Origin: Bifidobacterium longum subsp. longum JCM 1217
GTDB taxonomy: Bacteria > Actinomycetota > Actinomycetes > Actinomycetales > Bifidobacteriaceae
Length of the DNA stretch: 32,000 nucleotides
Reading direction: 5' to 3'
Assembly: GCF_000196555.1 (NCBI RefSeq)
Contig: NC_015067.1
Location: 1,200,001 to 1,232,000 of the forward strand
Shown here: in pieces, positions 3,851 through 32,000 of the stretch
Layout of the letters: each line of letters opens with the position of its first letter
How positions within the stretch are numbered: the stretch's first letter is position 1
Position numbers and translations under genes: made by a program
Notes under the pieces: model-generated
Databases searched by the model: none
What the model was told of the DNA's origin: nothing
The model's input: only the letters and a program-made list of their open reading frames with translations

Positions 3851-4837
3851 CGAAGGAAAAGAATCGACGAGGACGCGGGCTGGCGCGCCCCCGACCCGAA
3901 ACGCGACGGCGACCCGGACCGCCAGTTCTCGAGGCGCGCGTTCCGCCTCACCGGCCTGCGGCTGCTCAGATGGCAGCGGTGGATCGCGATCATGCTGCTC
4001 CTGATCGTCGCCTATCTCATGTCGAACCCGCCGGACGCGTCGAAGCCCGCCCCCGCCGCGGACCTCGATCCCGCGGGACGCGTCGAATCATGGGCGTTGA
4101 CGGAGCAATGGCTCGCCAAGGGCGCGTTGGGCGCGGACGCGCGGATCGTCAGCTGGAACGGACAATCCCACGCCACCGTGTCGGACGGGTCCAAGGACAT
4201 GACATTGAGCGTGAACACGCTGATCGTGGACTCCGCGGCCGGCTGGTGGCGGGTCAGGACCACGGTCACGCCCGACGGGCGCCTGTCCGGCTGGCCGAGC
4301 GTGGAACGACTCGGCCTGGCGGGCGCGGACGACAGGGGCGATACGGGCATGTGGAAGGACACGCTCGGACAATTGACCGCGTCCGACATGCTGGACACGA
4401 CCGTGCGCAAATGGGCGGACGCGTTCATGGGCTCCGATTCGGACATGCTGACCGTGCTCGTCAACGATCCGGATCCGAACGCCTGGTATCGGGCGCAGGG
4501 GCTCGGCAAGGCGGCGGCGGCCACCATCGACGGGGGCGCCTACCTGGACAAGGGGAACGTGGACCGTAACGAACGCAGGTCGGACCGGGCGGCGCTCAGG
4601 GTCACCGTCACCGTCGCGCACGCGGACGCGGGCGACGGTTCGGCCGCCCAATCCCAATACTCGTACGATCTGCTGGTCGCCGACCCGGACGGCACGCCGC
4701 GCATCCTCGCCTGGGGGGCTCCCGGCACGGGCGCGACCCTCAGGGAGCATGGGAACCGGGCGCCCGGCGCGCGCCCCGCGCACGACGCGTCATCCGACAC
4801 GTCCGCGTCCGCGGGCACGGGGGGCGCGGCGAAATGA
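3848..4837 (+). CDS. TcpC-like conjugative transfer protein (N-terminal TM anchor plus two soluble halves)
   Basis: 329-aa ORF with a basic N-terminus followed by one TM (WIAIMLLLIVAYLM). Located immediately upstream of the CHAP and NlpC/P60 hydrolases, as in Gram-positive T4SS loci. The family call is contextual. Confidence 0.55.
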   Translation: MRRKRIDEDAGWRAPDPKRDGDPDRQFSRRAFRLTGLRLLRWQRWIAIMLLLIVAYLMSNPPDASKPAPAADLDPAGRVESWALTEQWLAKGALGADARIVSWNGQSHATVSDGSKDMTLSVNTLIVDSAAGWWRVRTTVTPDGRLSGWPSVERLGLAGADDRGDTGMWKDTLGQLTASDMLDTTVRKWADAFMGSDSDMLTVLVNDPDPNAWYRAQGLGKAAAATIDGGAYLDKGNVDRNERRSDRAALRVTVTVAHADAGDGSAAQSQYSYDLLVADPDGTPRILAWGAPGTGATLREHGNRAPGARPAHDASSDTSASAGTGGAAK

Positions 4838-11479: not shown

Positions 11480-11817
11480 AACCACGCATGCAATACCGGA
11501 GCCGACGCGTCCACGGCATCCTGTTCGAACCCGACCATGCGAGCATGATCATCCGCAACAAGCCCGGCCGCCACTACCTGATCCACGGCGACGACACCCG
11601 TCTCATCACCGGGTTCGACACCCCGCTGGACGCGCCCGACACCATGGGCTACGGCATCTACCACGAAGCCGACCGGCCGAACACCATGTGGATACGCGAC
11701 CGGACCGGCCTACGCCGCATCCAAGGCACGCCCGCCACGCCGCTCGAACGCGACGCGCCCTGGAACCGCGTCGCCACCCGCATCCCCAACCATCCCATCC
11801 CCAGCCCATACGCATAG
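11476..11817 (+). CDS. Hypothetical protein (113 aa)
   Basis: ATGA overlap with the FGase-family gene. Its stop TAG is the TAG of the next CGCATAG box. Confidence 0.5.
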   Translation: MKPRMQYRSRRVHGILFEPDHASMIIRNKPGRHYLIHGDDTRLITGFDTPLDAPDTMGYGIYHEADRPNTMWIRDRTGLRRIQGTPATPLERDAPWNRVATRIPNHPIPSPYA

Positions 11818-11826
11818 GCGCACCGC

Positions 11827-14799: not shown

Positions 14800-15029
14800 G
14801 CCCCGTCGTATGCGTCAGGGGCACGGTTTTCCGGTCGGCTGTCAGACGGCGGGACCGTTGCAGTCTCACCCCCGGATGCCGGTCGGCGGCATGTCATGCG
14901 GGGACGAATACGGTTTCGACGTGAACCAGCCGTGCACGCCATGACCCGTCCTGCGCTCCGATACGGACGGGGCCATTCCAGGGGTCCGCAAAGGCGCGGG
15001 CTCCGGGGCGGCCCCTTTTCCTTTCCGTC

Positions 15030-26017: not shown

Positions 26018-27052
26018 TCATCCATGCGCCGGATAAGCGTCCCGTGGCGTCCCGTCGTCGGCGATGCTCGCCCAATGGTATCCGTAGGCGACGTGATCCG
26101 GGTCGCCCGCCACATGCCCGATGTTGGTGGCCGACCCGGCGGGCAGTCCCAATGCGACTGCGGCGGCGCGCAACGACGGGTATATGGTTCCCGTCTCCAC
26201 GCAGCGGATGGCGTGCCGGTTGCCTTTCGGCGCGGATCCCGCCCTCAGCCGGGCCAGGAGCGCCGGATCAGCCGAGGCCAGCCGGGCCAGCCATTCCGGG
26301 CTCGCCCAATGGAAGCCGCCGGCGCGGCGATCCGGATTGTCTCGCACATGGTTGATCAGGTCGCGCATGCCGGGCGTGTTCCTTGTCCGGCCCGTCAGGG
26401 CCAGGGTTTCGGCGGCGCGCATCGCGTCCCCGTATTCGACGCCCGTCTCCACGCATACGACCGGGCCGCGCAGCATGGTCTCGCGCATCGTCCTGCGCCA
26501 GGCGGCGAGCAGGCCGGGATGCCGGCGGCGTATCCGCCCGTACGTGACGCCGTCGACCCAGTGGACGCCCCCGTTCCGCCTGTCCAGCCGGTTGCGCTTC
26601 TGCAACCGGGATACGGGCATGCCATGCGCTTCGGCGGCCAGCGTCATCGTGTCGTACGCCTCCCCCGTTTCGGCGCACACCCACAGTCCCCTGAGCCGCT
26701 CCCCCTCCACAAGCCCCCGCAGCCGGCGGCGGCCTTGTTCGCCCAGCGCATCCCAGCGTCCGGCGGAAATCCAGTGCGCGCCGCCGGCGCTGCGACGCCA
26801 TGGCTGCGCGCTTCTGGCCGCCACGCTGATCCTGCCCACGGCCGCCCCGGTCTCATCATGGGCGGCCTTCAGCGTGTCGAACCGTCTGCCGTCCTCGATG
26901 CGCACCACGCCGGACAACCGTCGCGGCTCGAACTCGAATCCCGCGGCCTCCAGACGACGGGTCTGCCCCGCGTCGAGCCGGCCATGCCGCCACGCGTCGC
27001 GGATCCGCGCCGCATACGCCTGGTATCGTCTGGCTTCAACGCTTGTCGCCAC
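26018..27052 (-). CDS. Helicase-associated-domain-like N-terminus plus four tandem NUMOD1-like DNA-binding repeats
   Basis: GTG start overlapping the helicase 3' end by 17 nt. Four repeats of the pattern h-x-C-h-E-T-G-x-x-Y-x(3)-AA-x(10-25)-GG-x-HW: RIEDGRRFDTLKAAHD..GGAHW, VCAETGEAYDTMTLAAEA..NGGVHW, VCVETGVEYGDAMRAAET..AGGFHW, RCVETGTIYPSLRAAAVA..AYGYHW. Confidence 0.7.
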   Translation of the reverse strand: MATSVEARRYQAYAARIRDAWRHGRLDAGQTRRLEAAGFEFEPRRLSGVVRIEDGRRFDTLKAAHDETGAAVGRISVAARSAQPWRRSAGGAHWISAGRWDALGEQGRRRLRGLVEGERLRGLWVCAETGEAYDTMTLAAEAHGMPVSRLQKRNRLDRRNGGVHWVDGVTYGRIRRRHPGLLAAWRRTMRETMLRGPVVCVETGVEYGDAMRAAETLALTGRTRNTPGMRDLINHVRDNPDRRAGGFHWASPEWLARLASADPALLARLRAGSAPKGNRHAIRCVETGTIYPSLRAAAVALGLPAGSATNIGHVAGDPDHVAYGYHWASIADDGTPRDAYPAHG

Positions 27053-28295
27053 GGCGTTCCCCCAATCGTCGGATCACGTATTCGATCTTCCCGTCCATGC
27101 TCATGCCCAGCATGTCCTCCAGACGGGAGGCGAGGATGCGGATGTCGGCCGTCTCGTCCACGATCCGCATGCCCGCCAGCGGGTTTCCGGCATCCATATC
27201 CGCGCCGCCGGCCGCATCCGCGGGGGTTCCATGGGCGAGCAGCCATCCCAGCCCCGAATAATTGTCCGATATGTCGAACACGAGGGGCGTCCGGTTGCCC
27301 GTCGCGTCCAGGACGCGCCCCAACTGCTGGAGGTACACGTGCGGGCTTGTGGTGGCGCGCAGCATGACGATCGCGTCCACGCCGTCCAGATGCACGCCCT
27401 CGTTGAGCATGTCCACGCAGTACAGGATCTTCCGCCCCGGCGCCGAATCCGCCTCGAACGCGCGGATCGCGCCGTCGGGCCGCCCGTACCGGCTGTGGAT
27501 CGCGTAATCCCTCGCATCCGGGCCGAACCATTCGCGGGCATGGGCGCGCGCCCCCTCCAGCCGGGTCAGGTCGGTGCAGAACACGATGACGTGCGCGTCC
27601 GGCGGCAGGCGGCGGGCGAACATGGCGTCGACGCCTGCCATGCCCGTCACGGCGCGGCGCAGCCGTTCGAACAGGCGGCGCGCGTCCGGCGTCCCGCACC
27701 GTTCCACGCGGGGGCGGACGCGTCCGATGAGCGCATCCCCCTCGTATCCGGCGATGACGTATTCGGGGACGGGCAGTATCCGTCGCGCCCATGCCTCGCT
27801 CAATGTCATGCGGGAGGCGACCCGCCCGTCGAACAGCTCGTCGGTCATGTCCCTGGCCCCGTCCCCGTACCGTCTGGGCGTGGCCGACAGTCCGACGATC
27901 CTCGCCCCGGGGTTCGCGTCCAGGAGACGGCGCACCCCCGCGCCCCAATGGCGGGCCCCGCAATGATGGTATTCGTCGAGGATGATCAGGTCCGCATGCG
28001 GCATGGGGTTCCCGCGGCGCGTGCCGATCATCAGCTTCGCGTAGGTGAGGACCGTCACCCGGTCGGCCCGGAAGCCCGGGATGTCCCGTTCCAGGCATGG
28101 CAGCCGGCCGTCGGTGATGGTCCTTGACGGAGTGCACCAGATGACGTCCCATGACGGGCGGGCGGCGATGAGCGCGGCGGCGACGTAGGATTTGCCGGTC
28201 CCGGTCGGCTGGATGACGGCCGCCCTGTCCGTCATGTCGAGCATGGCCTCCAGTCCGCGCAATGCGGTCCGATTATGCGGGAGCAGTCCGTTCAT
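27036..28295 (-). CDS. Superfamily-2 DEAD/DEAH-box helicase (type III restriction Res-like core)
   Basis: Motif I QPTGTGKS, motif II LILDEYHH, motif III LSATP, motif VI QQLGRVLD. ATGA overlap with the upstream gene. Confidence 0.85.
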   Translation of the reverse strand: MNGLLPHNRTALRGLEAMLDMTDRAAVIQPTGTGKSYVAAALIAARPSWDVIWCTPSRTITDGRLPCLERDIPGFRADRVTVLTYAKLMIGTRRGNPMPHADLIILDEYHHCGARHWGAGVRRLLDANPGARIVGLSATPRRYGDGARDMTDELFDGRVASRMTLSEAWARRILPVPEYVIAGYEGDALIGRVRPRVERCGTPDARRLFERLRRAVTGMAGVDAMFARRLPPDAHVIVFCTDLTRLEGARAHAREWFGPDARDYAIHSRYGRPDGAIRAFEADSAPGRKILYCVDMLNEGVHLDGVDAIVMLRATTSPHVYLQQLGRVLDATGNRTPLVFDISDNYSGLGWLLAHGTPADAAGGADMDAGNPLAGMRIVDETADIRILASRLEDMLGMSMDGKIEYVIRRLGERRGDKR

Positions 28296-29074
28296 GCCGT
28301 CGGGTATGCGTTCCCCTCGCGTTTCTCGAACGTTTCGAGCATGGCGGGCACGCCTTCCATGGGGAACGTGGCCGTCGTGCCGAGGATGACGCCCTTCAAC
28401 AGGTTCGCGGCCACATGCTCCGCCTCCCGGACGGCTTTCGTGTTCGAGGCGGGACGCCGGTGCGCGGCCGCGTACTCGCGCATGACGGGCAGTTGGCGCG
28501 CCAGCTCGTCGTCATGCATGCCGTGCGCGCGGATGCGCCGCAATTCCGCGAGGTCGTCGTCCGGCAGGCGGCACGGCCATGGGGCGGACGGGTCCGCGCA
28601 GACGAGGCCGGCGGCGAGCATGAGCCGCATCGATTCCGCCTGCATTTTCCGCCGCCGCCGGGCGTCCATGTCCCGTTCCAGCAGATGCAGGTTCGAGGCG
28701 ACGTTGCCCAACGCCATGTCCACGGTCCGCCGTGTCGCCAGACCGGCCGCCAGGGGCTTCAGACCGTCCGGCAGCCCCGCGTCGAGGAGCAGGCACCCGT
28801 CCGGCAGGGACAGGGCCTCGAGCATGTTCGGGGATCCCTTGGCGACGCCTTTCAGGAACGCGACGGGCGTCATGATGGTGATGTCGGGATCGTGCAGCCC
28901 GATCGTCGCGTCCGCGCGATCCAGGAGGATGTCCTCCGGATCCGGCGCGATGACGATCCTCAGGTCGATGTCGCTGTCCGGACGGGCGAGCCCGTGCGCG
29001 TGGCTGCCGCCCACCCATGCGGCGAGCACGCGACGGGCCATGTGGGGTGCGAGCGCCTGTTCGAAACGGTTCAT
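28292..29074 (-). CDS. Pol-beta-superfamily nucleotidyltransferase (RlaP/PF10127-like)
   Basis: Start chosen at MNRFEQ (ATG 29074, ATGA overlap with the upstream stop). NTase signature GGSHAHGLARPDSDIDL (G-S ... D-x-D). Confidence 0.7.
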   Translation of the reverse strand: MNRFEQALAPHMARRVLAAWVGGSHAHGLARPDSDIDLRIVIAPDPEDILLDRADATIGLHDPDITIMTPVAFLKGVAKGSPNMLEALSLPDGCLLLDAGLPDGLKPLAAGLATRRTVDMALGNVASNLHLLERDMDARRRRKMQAESMRLMLAAGLVCADPSAPWPCRLPDDDLAELRRIRAHGMHDDELARQLPVMREYAAAHRRPASNTKAVREAEHVAANLLKGVILGTTATFPMEGVPAMLETFEKREGNAYPTA

Positions 29075-29403
29075 CGTTCGATTCCCAACGATTCGAGGTA
29101 GTCGTCGCCGAGCCGGGCGGCCTGCCGGCCTTCGCGGCTGTGGTTGATGCGGTCGGCCACGTCGCACGCCTCGCGGACGAGACCGGCGAACAGGCGGGCG
29201 TCGCCGGCGTCGCGGGCGCCGATGCCGGTCCATGCGATGCGGGCCTTGCCGTATTCCATGCGGATGGTCACGCAGGCCGGTTCGCCGAGGCGCGTGGCGT
29301 CCGTCCCGTTGTCGATCCGGTATGGGCGTTCCGGGTCGTCGAGACGGTGGACGGTGAAGTGTTCTGTGGAGAATGCGATGCGATCGTTCATGGAGGGATG
29401 CAT
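29071..29403 (-). CDS. Hypothetical protein (106-110 aa), first gene of the helicase operon
   Basis: ATG 29403 is directly preceded by GGGGACGC, with an alternative ATG at 29391. No motif recognised. Confidence 0.5.
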   Translation of the reverse strand: MHPSMNDRIAFSTEHFTVHRLDDPERPYRIDNGTDATRLGEPACVTIRMEYGKARIAWTGIGARDAGDARLFAGLVREACDVADRINHSREGRQAARLGDDYLESLGIER

Positions 29404-29430
29404 GCGTCCCCGCGGACGGGTTCCGTCGGG

Positions 29431-29479
29431 CTTTACATTATTGTAAAGCCCCGGCCCCGGACTTTACAATATTGTATAG
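29431..29479 (-). promoter_or_regulatory. Two 18-bp AT-rich palindromes that carry a sigma70-like -35/-10 for the minus-strand operon
   Basis: ctttacattattgtaaag (29431-29448) and ctttacaatattgtatag (29462-29479). On the minus strand, TTGTAA (29469-29464) and TACAAT (29445-29440) are separated by 18 nt, about 35 nt upstream of ATG 29403. Confidence 0.45.
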
Positions 29480-29801
29480 TTTTCCGGCCCGTTTTGTATG
29501 CGTGTATGCATCTGTATGCATCCGGGGATGCATACAGAAAAAGCCCGGAAAAAGCCCGAAAACCCTTATATATAAAGGGAAAAACAGAATTCCTTTCTCT
29601 TGTATGCATTGTATGCATCAATATAAGGGGTTTCTTCCCTTTTTCCCGAATCCCCTATAAGGGAACGATGCATACAATGCATACACGCCCCCGGACCATC
29701 CCCGGAACGTCGGAAACAAGCCGAAACGGGAAGAGAAGATGTATGCATCCCCGGATGCATACGGATGCATACACGCGCCCCGGAATGCATACACGGCCCG
29801 G

Positions 29802-29827
29802 GGCCGGCGACCGCCGGCCACCGTTTT
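29802..29827 (+). terminator. Terminator-like hairpin plus T-tract inside array unit 1
   Basis: ggccggc gacc gccggcc, then accgtttt. Confidence 0.3.
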
Positions 29828-30259
29828 GCCGTGAGGGTGCCCCGCCTTTAGGCGTGGGGAGGACGTCAAGCGATCCTCCGATCCGTTTCGCCGGGCTCCC
29901 CGGGGGTTCGCGATGCTGTGGAGCCGCATGCGCGGGACCGTGTATGCATTCCGGTTCGCGTGTATGCATTTGTATGCATCCGGGGATGCATACAGAAAAA
30001 GCCCGGAAAAAGCCCGAAAACCCTTATATATAAAGGGAAAAACAGAATTCCTTTCTCTTGTATGCATTGTATGCATCAATATAAGGGGTTTCCTTCCTTT
30101 TTCTCGAATCCTCTATAAGGGAATGATGCATACAATGCATACACGCCCCCGGACCATCCCCGGAACGTTGGAACCAAGCCGAAACGGGAAGAGAAGATGT
30201 ATGCATCCCCGGATGCATACGGATGCATACAGGCCGGCCGGAATGCATACACGGCCCGG

Positions 30260-30285
30260 GGCCGGCGACCGCCGGCCACCGTTTT
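30260..30285 (+). terminator. Terminator-like hairpin plus T-tract inside array unit 2
   Basis: Identical copy 458 bp downstream of the first. Confidence 0.3.
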
Positions 30286-30737
30286 GCCGTGAGGGTGCCC
30301 CGCCTTTAGGCGTGGGGAGGACGTCAAGCGATCCTCCGATCCGTTTCGCCGGGCTCCCCGGGGGTTCGCGATGCTGTGGAGCCGCATGCGCGGGACCGTG
30401 TATGCATTCCGGTTCGCGTGTATGCATTTGTATGCATCCGGGGATGCATACAGAAAAAGCCCGGAAAAAGCCCGAAAACCCTTATATATAAAGGGAAAAA
30501 CAGAATTCCTTTCTCTTGTATGCATTGTATGCATCAATATAAGGGGTTTCTTCCCTTTTTCCCGAATCCTCTATAAGGGAATGATGCATACAATGCATAC
30601 ACGCCCCCGGACCATCCCCGGAACGTCGGAAACAAGCCGAAACGGAAAGAAAAGATGTATGCATCCCCTGATGCATACGGATGCATACAGCCCGCCCGGA
30701 ATGCATACGCGCCCCGGGGCCGGCATAGCCGCGCCGC

Positions 30738-30845
30738 ATGAACGGCTTGAGACCATACGCGGTCCGGTTCACGGTGTCCGCCTCCCTGTGGATGACGACC
30801 ACCGGCGACGAGGTGTGTTTTAGCAAGTTGGCGTCCGCTTTGTGA
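30738..30845 (+). pseudogene. 5' fragment of a gene truncated by the IS21-family insertion
   Basis: ATG with the T of a GGCATAGCC box 12 nt upstream and no SD. Reads [26 protein letters not shown], then runs into IS-end sequence and stops after 35 codons. Confidence 0.5.
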
Positions 30846-30925
30846 GCGGTGTTTTTCCGCAGTGTAGGCAGCGGGTTTTCCGCAGGGTGTGCGGTATCGG
30901 CCGCTGCCTGTCTGCGTTGTGTTGG

Positions 30926-31711
30926 TTATTTGGTCATGAGGGCGTGTTCGCTTCGGTAGGAGCGGCCCTCGAATCTGATGAGCCGTCCGTGGTGGACGGT
31001 GCGGTCGATGAGGGCGGCGGCCATGTTCTTGTCGCCGAGCACGCGTCCCCATCCGCTGAATTCGATGTTGGTGGTGTAGATGATGCTCCTTGTCTCGTAG
31101 GAATCGGAAATGATCTGGAAGAGGAGCCTGCTGCCCTCCTCGTCTATGGGCAGGTAGCCGAACTCGTCGATGATGAGAAGTCGGGCCTTGCCGATGCTCG
31201 CGAGTTCCCGGTCGAGCCGGTTCTCCTGCTGGGCGCGGCGCAGACGCATGAGCAGTCCGGTCGCGGTGAAGAAGCGCACCGGGACGCCCCGCTCGCAGGC
31301 GAGCCGTCCGATCGCGATGGCCAGGTGGCTCTTGCCGGTGCCGACGGGCCCGTAGAGCACGAGGTCCTCGCATCCGGCGACGAAGTCGAGGTTCTCGAGC
31401 TGCGCGCGCCCCCAGTCGGCGGGCATCTTCAGGTTGGTCCAGTCATAGCCGTCGAGGGTCTTGTCGGCGGGGAAGCCGGCCTGTTTGAGCAGGCGCAGGC
31501 GTTTGGATCGCTCGCGCGAGTCGAGTTCGGCCGTGAACCATCGTTCGATGAAGTCGAGCTGGTTGGGCGTGGCCTCGGCGAGCGTGCCCGCGAGCACGCT
31601 GCGTGTCAGGGTCAGGCTGCGGCTCATCTTCAGGATCCTCTCGCTCTTCTCGGTCGTGGACGCGCGACGGCGGCGGGTCTCCGGGATCACCGGATCGGGT
31701 CTGACGCTCAC
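30926..31711 (-). CDS. istB: IS21-family helper ATPase IstB
   Basis: Walker A GPVGTGKSHLA, Walker B LLIIDEFGY, IYTTNIEFSGW and RTVHHGRLIRFEGRSYR. GTG start overlapping the istA stop, with an alternative ATG at 31627. Confidence 0.9.
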   Translation of the reverse strand: MSVRPDPVIPETRRRRASTTEKSERILKMSRSLTLTRSVLAGTLAEATPNQLDFIERWFTAELDSRERSKRLRLLKQAGFPADKTLDGYDWTNLKMPADWGRAQLENLDFVAGCEDLVLYGPVGTGKSHLAIAIGRLACERGVPVRFFTATGLLMRLRRAQQENRLDRELASIGKARLLIIDEFGYLPIDEEGSRLLFQIISDSYETRSIIYTTNIEFSGWGRVLGDKNMAAALIDRTVHHGRLIRFEGRSYRSEHALMTK

Positions 31712-32000
31712 CGTTCTTCCCCTCCGTCGTCCGTGCCGGTGATGAACCGGTCGTAGCCGCTCAGGTCGGGCTCCTCGATCCCGCCGGGGTATTCCCACTC
31801 GCCGTCGCGCATGCGCAACGCGATAGGGGTGAGCGAGTCCGCGTGCAGGCCCATGTCCCTGTTCGAGCGCAGGATCTCGCCGCACGCCTGCATCGCGGGA
31901 TCGAACCCGGCCGCCCGGCACGCGTCCCCGATCGCTTTGAGGCTCTCCCTCAACGTCTTTTCGTCCATGGAATCAAGCCACGCGCGTATATCGTCGGGCA
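31708..32000 (-). CDS. istA: IS21-family transposase IstA, C-terminal part only
   Basis: The reading frame is open to the window edge (PDDIRAWLDSMDEKTLRESLKAIG...). It lies immediately upstream of and overlaps istB. The call is by position. Confidence 0.6.
   Translation of the reverse strand, partial: PDDIRAWLDSMDEKTLRESLKAIGDACRAAGFDPAMQACGEILRSNRDMGLHADSLTPIALRMRDGEWEYPGGIEEPDLSGYDRFITGTDDGGEER

Follow-up and report, generated by a model that had tools for sequence, protein, structure and literature searches.

A repeated dyad cassette of nine-base sites between divergent genes of a Bifidobacterium integrative conjugative element

Bases 1,200,001–1,232,000 of the genome of Bifidobacterium longum subsp. 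longum JCM 1217 (a single contig of 2.385 Mb, 60.3% G+C), a stretch of 32,000 nucleotides referred to here as the window, contain an array in which a nine-base sequence, TGTATGCAT, recurs in both orientations around shared centres. Why so many copies of one short sequence should be set out in mirror order between two genes pointing away from them, and what might read them, is the question raised by this locus. A preliminary description of the window proposed that each unit of the array is a dyad of three groups of four sites, that this geometry reflects cooperative binding of a protein that wraps or pairs DNA, and, speculatively, that the protein in question is encoded by a nearby gene with four tandem repeats. 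To our knowledge, the large conjugative elements of gut bifidobacteria have barely been studied, and we know of only a few plasmids for which the switching-on of early genes after entry into a new cell has been described.

Twelve sites and their symmetry

Cassette copy 2 (29941..30251, + strand, 311 bp) carries 12 sites and represents the extended, fully mirrored variant. A motif search of the window recovered all 12 where they had been placed by the preliminary description: the outer left group at 29941+, 29961+, 29971+ and 29986−, the central group at 30059+, 30068+, 30126− and 30135−, and the outer right group at 30198+, 30213−, 30223− and 30243−. The plan of this copy is thus + + + − in the left arm, + + / − − in the centre and + − − − in the right arm. 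The site at 30213− is CGTATGCAT, one mismatch away from TGTATGCAT, and the second site of the right arm always carries this same mismatch, ATGCATACG. Thirty-six of the 37 TGTATGCAT matches in the 32-kb window fall inside 29495–30709, and shuffled-sequence controls gave a mean of 2.9 matches and a maximum of 11.

The reported symmetry was reproduced by coordinate arithmetic. Start and end of the outer mirrored pairs of copy 2 add up to 60192, which sets their centre at 30096, and those of the central pairs to 60202, with the centre at 30101, so that the central group is self-symmetric 5 bp away, as had been noted. That every unit is dyad-symmetric was true of two units and not of the third: copy 3 (30399..30709, + strand, 311 bp), an extended variant whose last site is degenerate, is fully mirrored with a sum of 61108, whereas in copy 1 (29495..29793, + strand, 299 bp), which is of the common compact variant, the outermost left site is degenerate (TGTATGCGT) and overlaps its neighbour at a spacing of 8 bp instead of 20 bp, leaving that pair 12 bp off the mirror. 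The inverted arms are 70 nt long and 84–87% complementary, with central arms of 20 nt that pair perfectly; across the array, arms range from 37 to 70 nt and from 84 to 97% complementarity. The 11-bp spacers described as near-palindromic match at only 7 of 11 positions. A-tracts (29996–30023) and an AT-rich palindrome (30024–30038) were confirmed between the left arm and the centre and occur only there, their right-hand counterpart being GC-rich, which makes the dyad a property of the sites and not of the whole interior.

The array forms a tandem repeat (29500–30724) with a period of 458 bp, 2.7 copies and 96% matches, in which the repeated unit is the cassette of 297–311 bp and not the 458-bp period. 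Copies 1 and 2 are separated by a spacer (29794..29940, + strand) that is found again at 30252–30398 and includes a GC-hairpin piece. The spacer is pieced together from cassette flanks of other loci and includes the leader and ribosome site of a divergent gene located there to the left of the cassette, indicating that the tandem array was built by recombination between dispersed cassettes. The hairpin piece itself, 52 bp long (30276–30327, and also 29818–29869), has 94–96% identity to non-coding stretches in five megaplasmids of B. longum (169–198 kb), and shorter fragments of it recur in other Bifidobacterium genomes. In a plasmid collection, only this piece and one gene common to Bifidobacterium megaplasmids were matched; a search of a phage collection returned no match, and an Rfam scan of 28000–32000 gave only sub-threshold microRNA-hairpin matches, caused by the palindromes.

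To the left of the array, two copies of an 18-bp palindrome (consensus CTTTACAATATTGTAAAG) occupy 29431..29479, 31 bp apart and with promoter-like hexamers on both strands. They are followed by a leftward operon (29403–26018) that comprises, in order, a gene for a 110-aa protein with no family match (29071..29403, − strand), a nucleotidyltransferase gene, an SF2 helicase gene and the gene for the four-repeat protein (26018..27052, − strand). To the right stands the 5′ stump of a rightward gene (30738..30813, + strand), cut by an IS21-family insertion at about 30814, after 25 codons. The ORF for the IstB-like ATPase of this insertion (30926..31921, − strand; PF01695, 1.3e-55) lies outside the cassette and, as listed, probably begins too far upstream. 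IS21-family insertions are present just 3′ of two cassette arrays (window 30814–32000 and genome 1,126,0xx–1,128,5xx), both with size-matched ORFs of 520 and 304 aa. No convincing sigma-70-type promoter was found inside the cassette, where a consensus scan returned three sites versus 1.5 expected; the best candidate by eye is TTGTAT-16-TATAAG.

Distribution in the element and its relatives

The window lies inside an island of about 150 kb (63–71% G+C) encoding a VirB4-like ATPase, two FtsK-like ATPases, CHAP and lysozyme cell-wall hydrolases and surface proteins, as well as a ParA-like ATPase, a WhiB-like factor and an excisionase. On the basis of this set of conjugation, ParA-like, WhiB-like and excisionase genes, the island is an integrative conjugative element. 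Across the whole 2.39-Mb genome the cassette is present in nine copies at five loci, all within the island: 1,097,9xx; 1,129,7xx and 1,130,2xx; 1,174,7xx and 1,175,3xx; 1,195,8xx; and the window, with three copies. Exact TGTATGCAT 9-mers follow the same distribution, 92 of the 100 found genome-wide falling in the five island clusters. An exact scan of genome contigs for two adjacent 9-mers yielded 61 unrelated chance matches and no Bifidobacterium record.

A syntenic but inverted island was found in a genome of a second species of the genus (G043; 2.8 Mb, one contig, 99% complete), with protein identities mostly of 83–98%. There, each of the five orthologous loci has a single cassette, and the 2.7-fold array of the window is thus a local amplification. 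At the four loci compared, other than that of the window, cassettes of the two species are 83–94% identical over their whole length, which is not above the identity of the flanking coding DNA. In both genomes the window array has the opposite orientation to the cassettes of the other four loci. The rightward gene that is cut in the window is intact in G043 and encodes 275 aa. Reverse-complemented, the right-arm end of the cassette at 1,130,2xx is identical to the extended left arm of copies 2 and 3, a match indicating that arm exchange between cassettes created the "perfect" mirror. At locus C (1,174,4xx–1,175,6xx) the duplication included the first codons of the PIF1-like helicase gene; this gene is cut there by an rve-type transposase gene, and is intact in G043, beside a single cassette.

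At all five loci the cassette is intergenic and both neighbouring genes point away from it, the rightward start codon lying 28–46 bp beyond the last site of the right arm. Rightward genes encode a 73-aa protein followed by an RNA ligase and a HAD nucleotidase, a PIF1-like helicase (IS-interrupted in the host genome) and an orphan N6/N4 DNA methylase; leftward genes encode an 847-aa DUF5906/Prim-Pol protein (hereafter the primase-helicase), a HicB-like protein and a 183-aa XRE regulator, in addition to the operon of the window.

Many genes of the element are preceded by a distinct box, ACGCAT[AG][CG], followed after 4–10 bases (mostly 7–9) by ATG. Counting ORFs of 50 aa or more, 33 have the box in the 165-kb island and 26 in the other 2.2 Mb; examples in the window are 14801–14816 (−), 11810–11826 (+), 28296–28311 (−) and 29392–29407 (−). 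The box also precedes genes internal to operons, mostly without a Shine-Dalgarno sequence, and looks like an element-family signal that might direct either translation or the transcription of leaderless messages. It is also frequent in the related element of G009, whose cassette repeat is unrelated, which indicates that it is independent of the 9-mer and weakens the idea of a single factor reading both the 9-mer and the box GACGCATAC, one base different from it.

With the VirB4-like protein as query, five more genomes of the genus were found to carry related elements. The G009 element, whose backbone proteins are 27–57% identical to those of the host element, contains at least eight dispersed cassettes of about 290 bp on four contigs, one of them between the primase-helicase and VirB4 genes. 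These are built from a different 8–9-mer, GCTGCGAC, on the same arm plan, + + + − on the left and + − − − on the right, with the centre flanked by a single site on either side. Genomes G098 and G101 each carry a single array of TCCTTACGCT, which has a + + + − arm and lies upstream of the primase-helicase homologue. Arrays based on GTATGCAT stand upstream of the primase-helicase gene in B. felsineum (two cassettes) and B. myosotis (about five in tandem). In B. sp. SO1 about six tandem cassettes upstream of that gene (L182, 1590–3925) combine GGTATGCAT in the arms with pairs of CGTAGGAAC in the centre; this use of different repeats shows arms and centre to be separable units. Over the N-terminal 280 residues of the primase-helicase, identity is 60–61% for B. 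felsineum and B. myosotis and 54% for B. sp. SO1. Site spacing and symmetry, for which the preliminary description had proposed a comparison of homologous arrays, are conserved in related arrays.

Some further features of these elements were recorded. At the centre of the G009 cassette that lies between the primase-helicase and VirB4 genes (contig 16, L051 ~3990–4040), a perfect 19-bp hairpin followed by TTTTTT looks like a one-way intrinsic terminator between two operons. Two genes directly 3′ of G009 cassettes share the N-terminal stretch RKPKGAPNSAGGQY (contig 4 at 7703 and contig 6 at 1751). The WhiB-like factor of the host element (L024:6875–7117, − strand; Pfam 3.2e-17) has a G009 homologue (contig 16, 29246–29551) about 260 bp from a cassette.

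Selection on the sites, candidate readers and alternative explanations

A gapped left-arm pattern searched against metagenomes matched 44 stretches, mostly from human gut, with 51 pattern matches. Relative to the second left site, the large majority of the 51 had left-arm sites at −8 (−20 in four), 0, +10 and +25 (reverse), central sites at +98, +107, +165 (reverse) and +174 (reverse), and right-arm sites at +237, +252, +262 and +282, the last three reverse. Offsets differed by just 1–2 bp, and the reverse site at +252 was in nearly all cases the ATGCATACG variant. Full mirroring is seen in a minority, 4 of the 51 metagenome matches and 3 of the 14 genomic copies. To measure constraint, 46 distinct copies were aligned, and only those site columns left unfixed by the search pattern were counted. 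Mismatches amounted to 1.2% in 54 site columns versus 9.5% in 121 spacer columns of the same half, and 12 of the 54 versus 101 of the 121 columns were variable, an eight-fold contrast in mismatches that is still large although the copies are related and a Fisher P consequently overstates its significance.

Nowhere in the cassette is variation greater than in the 8-bp spacer within the right arm, a spacer that has no left-arm partner in most copies. At 13 variable pairs of the outer arms every change was one-sided, and many of the changes break pairing; in the aligned copies, compensating substitutions between the arms were found neither at the outer stem nor beside the central stem. One-sided changes, lack of compensation and the variability of the unpartnered spacer together indicate selection on the 9-mers and their spacing and not on pairing.

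In metagenome contigs (loci L127–L170) the left and right flanks of the cassette are joined in many different combinations, such as the primase-helicase with the methylase, or the left operon of the window with the RNA-ligase block. This diversity indicates that cassettes act as junctions for recombination, through which operons are shuffled, duplicated and inverted.

From the geometry of the sites, their conservation and their genomic context, we infer protein binding, cooperativity or looping, and repression. The twelve 9-mers would be binding sites for a sequence-specific protein encoded by the element, and this protein would assemble cooperatively on the two arms and the centre. DNA may be wrapped or looped at the dyad, and the phased A-tracts between left arm and centre would probably aid such bending or looping. 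The resulting complex would most likely repress or insulate both flanking operons, and the dyad plan may serve the two divergent transcription units. These operons encode DNA-handling functions (methylase, primase-helicase, PIF1-like helicase, RNA ligase) of a kind that would be needed early after transfer. Cooperative binding to multiple sites is the best reading of the locus in view of the constrained 9-mers, the fixed spacing, the preserved plan and the lack of compensating arm changes, and to this extent the proposal of cooperative binding is supported, its link to the four-repeat protein excepted. That the cassette is a cis-acting multi-site platform for a protein of the element, through which both flanking operons are controlled or insulated, has in our judgement about an even chance of being correct.

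The four tandem repeats of the protein encoded at 26018..27052 are real, each ending in G-x-H-W, and its gene belongs to an operon leaving the array. As a reader of the dyad, however, it is contradicted by its absence from G043, which keeps five cassettes: neither it nor the product of the adjacent SF2 helicase gene has a homologue there even at E ≤ 1, in a search whose positive control, the host genome, was matched by the four-repeat protein at 3.8e-232. Homologue searches found it missing also from G009, G098, G101, G095 and G031. It has no Pfam match even at E ≤ 5, and none to a DNA-binding family, its only other match being one PDB entry, a 66-residue protein with an uninformative name. 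The equation of four sites with four repeats fails as well, given that the G009 element has two central sites, that sites within one group differ in direction and that the outermost site shifts by 12 bp between variants. To judge from its distribution, the four-repeat protein is accessory cargo and not a conserved partner of the cassette, and that it should read each group of four sites and wrap the dyad is extremely improbable.

Among other products of the element, the leading but unproven candidate for binding the cassettes is the primase-helicase, because an array always stands just upstream of its gene, the only gene of which this is true in every lineage examined (two cassettes in the host genome, one in G043 and one in G009). 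Its N-terminal ~250 residues are lineage-specific, with distant homologues aligning only from about residue 250; the N-terminus of the host protein is unrelated to that of G009, whereas those of G009 and G098 are 35% identical despite different repeats. This domain was modelled confidently (pLDDT mostly 70–95) and had no Pfam match and no significant structural match to any DNA-binding fold; in a fold search of the whole model only the Prim-Pol domain was matched (NrS-1 primase-polymerase, E 2e-3). The association between gene and array is in itself weak evidence for binding, because everything in these elements co-varies with lineage.

Other regulators were considered. Profile searches of the island for RHH_1 and ParB_N proteins found neither. 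The XRE regulator next to cassette D is kept in G043 (91%) and has no homologue in G009-type elements, which speaks against it as the binder of the 9-mers; a more plausible target for it is the 18-bp palindrome found alongside left arms. This palindrome, CTTTACAATATTGTAAAG, has eight copies in the genome (≤3 mismatches), all about 10 to 50 bp outside left arms and often paired at a spacing of 31 bp, which yields TTGTAA-18-TACAAT on both strands. It occurs beside the window array and four other cassette loci, is degenerate in G043 and is probably the operator of the XRE regulator. A 91-aa, weakly RHH-like protein (E 0.005–0.03) encoded behind the cassette in some metagenome contigs was also discarded, being absent from G043.

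If the primase-helicase does bind the cassettes, they might be iteron arrays of this 847-aa protein as an initiator, serving as origin and autoregulatory operator beside its gene, with the dispersed copies titrating or pairing with (handcuffing) the initiator and so limiting replication of the excised element. Phage P4 offers an analogy: its alpha protein, likewise a primase-helicase, binds octamer repeats both in ori and at another locus, crr. The constant position of the array upstream of the gene, the A-tracts and AT-rich core of the cassette and the confidently modelled, lineage-specific N-terminal domain are all in keeping with such a role, which overlaps the multi-site platform if the same protein also represses neighbouring operons. 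An iteron origin, however, is expected at one locus per replicon, and here there are five loci and nine copies; four of the five are not beside the gene of the primase-helicase, the window array being 97 kb from it. The domain that would do the binding matches no Pfam family and no DNA-binding fold significantly, and its similarity between G009 and G098 in spite of their different repeats also speaks against this reading. We regard the iteron reading as rather doubtful.

Pairing within the dyad is at the heart of another explanation, by which the cassette works as a folded single strand (an Frpo- or sso-like hairpin, or a leader RNA) and the 9-mers are a by-product. A very strong fold is predicted both for DNA (−93 kcal/mol, z = −14.8) and for RNA (−169 kcal/mol, z about −15); the VirB4 and coupling-ATPase machinery implies that the element probably enters recipients single-stranded, the downstream genes would be of the establishment type, and EGeRS1 regions of another conjugative element, discussed below, are likewise rich in inverted repeats. 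The substitution pattern nevertheless makes a folded strand improbable: compensating changes are lacking, many changes break pairing, spacers inside the arms are the most variable columns and the outermost pairing partner is missing in most copies. Moreover, a hairpin needs no twelve copies of one 9-mer, inspection by eye found no −35/−10 pair inside a stem, and the inverted window array means that cassettes differ in orientation on one transferred strand. A role in partitioning the excised element, as centromere-like or pairing sites, would fit short repeats of mixed orientation at several loci, and the ParA-like ATPase of the island is conserved in G043 and G009. Its gene, however, lies about 21 kb from the nearest cassette with no TGTATGCAT site upstream; no centromere-binding partner was recognised, the ORF 3′ of the gene matched no family, and the island has no ParB_N or RHH_1 protein, so that partition is a very improbable function. 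Finally, a length of about 300 bp, terminal inverted repeats of 37–70 nt, multiple copies and flanks joined in many combinations might suggest a miniature inverted-repeat transposable element, or a selfish repeat without a role for the element. None of 14 copies shows a target-site duplication, both species carry cassettes at the same five loci, every copy is confined to the island, internal 9-mers are constrained and not the ends alone, and shuffled flanks are the expected outcome of homologous recombination between repeats; this origin is highly improbable.

Implications and relation to known systems

The preferred reading, a multi-site platform for an element protein, admits a broader form, in which a portable dyad cassette of about 300 bp is both the common control unit of a family of Bifidobacterium conjugative elements and the recombination junction by which their operons are exchanged. 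The repeat would be lineage-specific (TGTATGCAT, GCTGCGAC or the mixed GGTATGCAT/CGTAGGAAC), and in each lineage all cassettes would be bound by one protein, which would control every early operon on either side; a possible candidate is the primase-helicase, which would act through its lineage-specific N-terminal domain. This is a tentative proposal, to which we give distinctly less than an even chance. Were it true, one sequence-recognisable cassette at the head of every early operon would be a direct handle on the regulon: it would mark the operons, serve as bait for the regulator and provide a portable switch for Bifidobacterium genetics. Cassettes acting as junctions between gene blocks may explain the mosaic cargo of these elements, and regulation and modular gene exchange would then rest on one sequence.

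Several known systems use short repeats in comparable ways. In iteron systems (P4 alpha with ori and crr, P1 incA/incC, R6K), repeats lie by the initiator gene and distant clusters pair with the origin. The cassette shares with them direct and inverted short repeats beside a putative initiator gene and an AT-rich segment, and differs in its five loci spread over 130 kb and its fixed dyad plan between divergent operons. The heptad arrays bound by the omega repressor of pSM19035 have a dual operator and centromere role, N15 has dispersed centromeres, and the Rco operators OI and OII of pLS20 are bound cooperatively with looping. The omega and Rco arrays consist of 7–8-bp sites in mixed orientation, bound cooperatively at several promoters, and so resemble the cassette in layout, with different proteins and motifs; they are contiguous runs, whereas the cassette consists of three separated groups in a fixed mirror geometry. 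A full-text literature search found no paper containing the 9-mer in this context.

Closer parallels are found among the regulatory sequences of Gram-positive conjugative elements. The cassette stands directly upstream of several operons of a conjugative element, at five loci, a position it shares with the establishment-gene regulatory sequences (EGeRS) of the pLS20 plasmid family. In p576 and clade II plasmids of the pLS20 family, EGeRS2 consists of two 7-mers flanking a strong promoter and is bound by an autoregulatory ribbon-helix-helix repressor (Val-Calvo et al. 2021, PMC8708921). The likeness lies in conserved regulatory sequences before several operons, in short repeated motifs bound cooperatively by one element-encoded repressor, with which the cassette compares through its predicted binding, and in variable "establishment" genes downstream, such as anti-restriction functions (PMC8708921). 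By contrast, the cassette has twelve 9-mers in a 300-bp dyad, and no RHH_1 protein was recognised in the island. EGeRS1 of pLS20, 420–750 bp long and rich in inverted repeats, precedes five operons and blocks read-through (PMC8708921). Like the cassette, it extends over several hundred bp with inverted repeats and tandem internal duplications; unlike the cassette, which keeps its 9-mers and not their pairing, it is defined by secondary structure and not by one short motif, and it precedes co-directional operons within about 20% of the plasmid (PMC8708921), whereas the cassette stands between divergent genes.

In the same host genus, the megaplasmid pMP7017 carries a 34-bp promoter-overlapping motif before 19 transcription units, about a quarter of its genes, among them defence and replication genes; the motif is absent from chromosomes (PMC10832533). 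It too is element-wide, but it is a single box over the −10 element with a sequence unlike that of the cassette (PMC10832533). In kind, the cassette would thus be a repeated control sequence heading early operons of a conjugative element, as are EGeRS and the pMP7017 motif; in form it differs from both, with twelve 9-mers in a fixed dyad between divergent operons and a repeat that is specific to each lineage.
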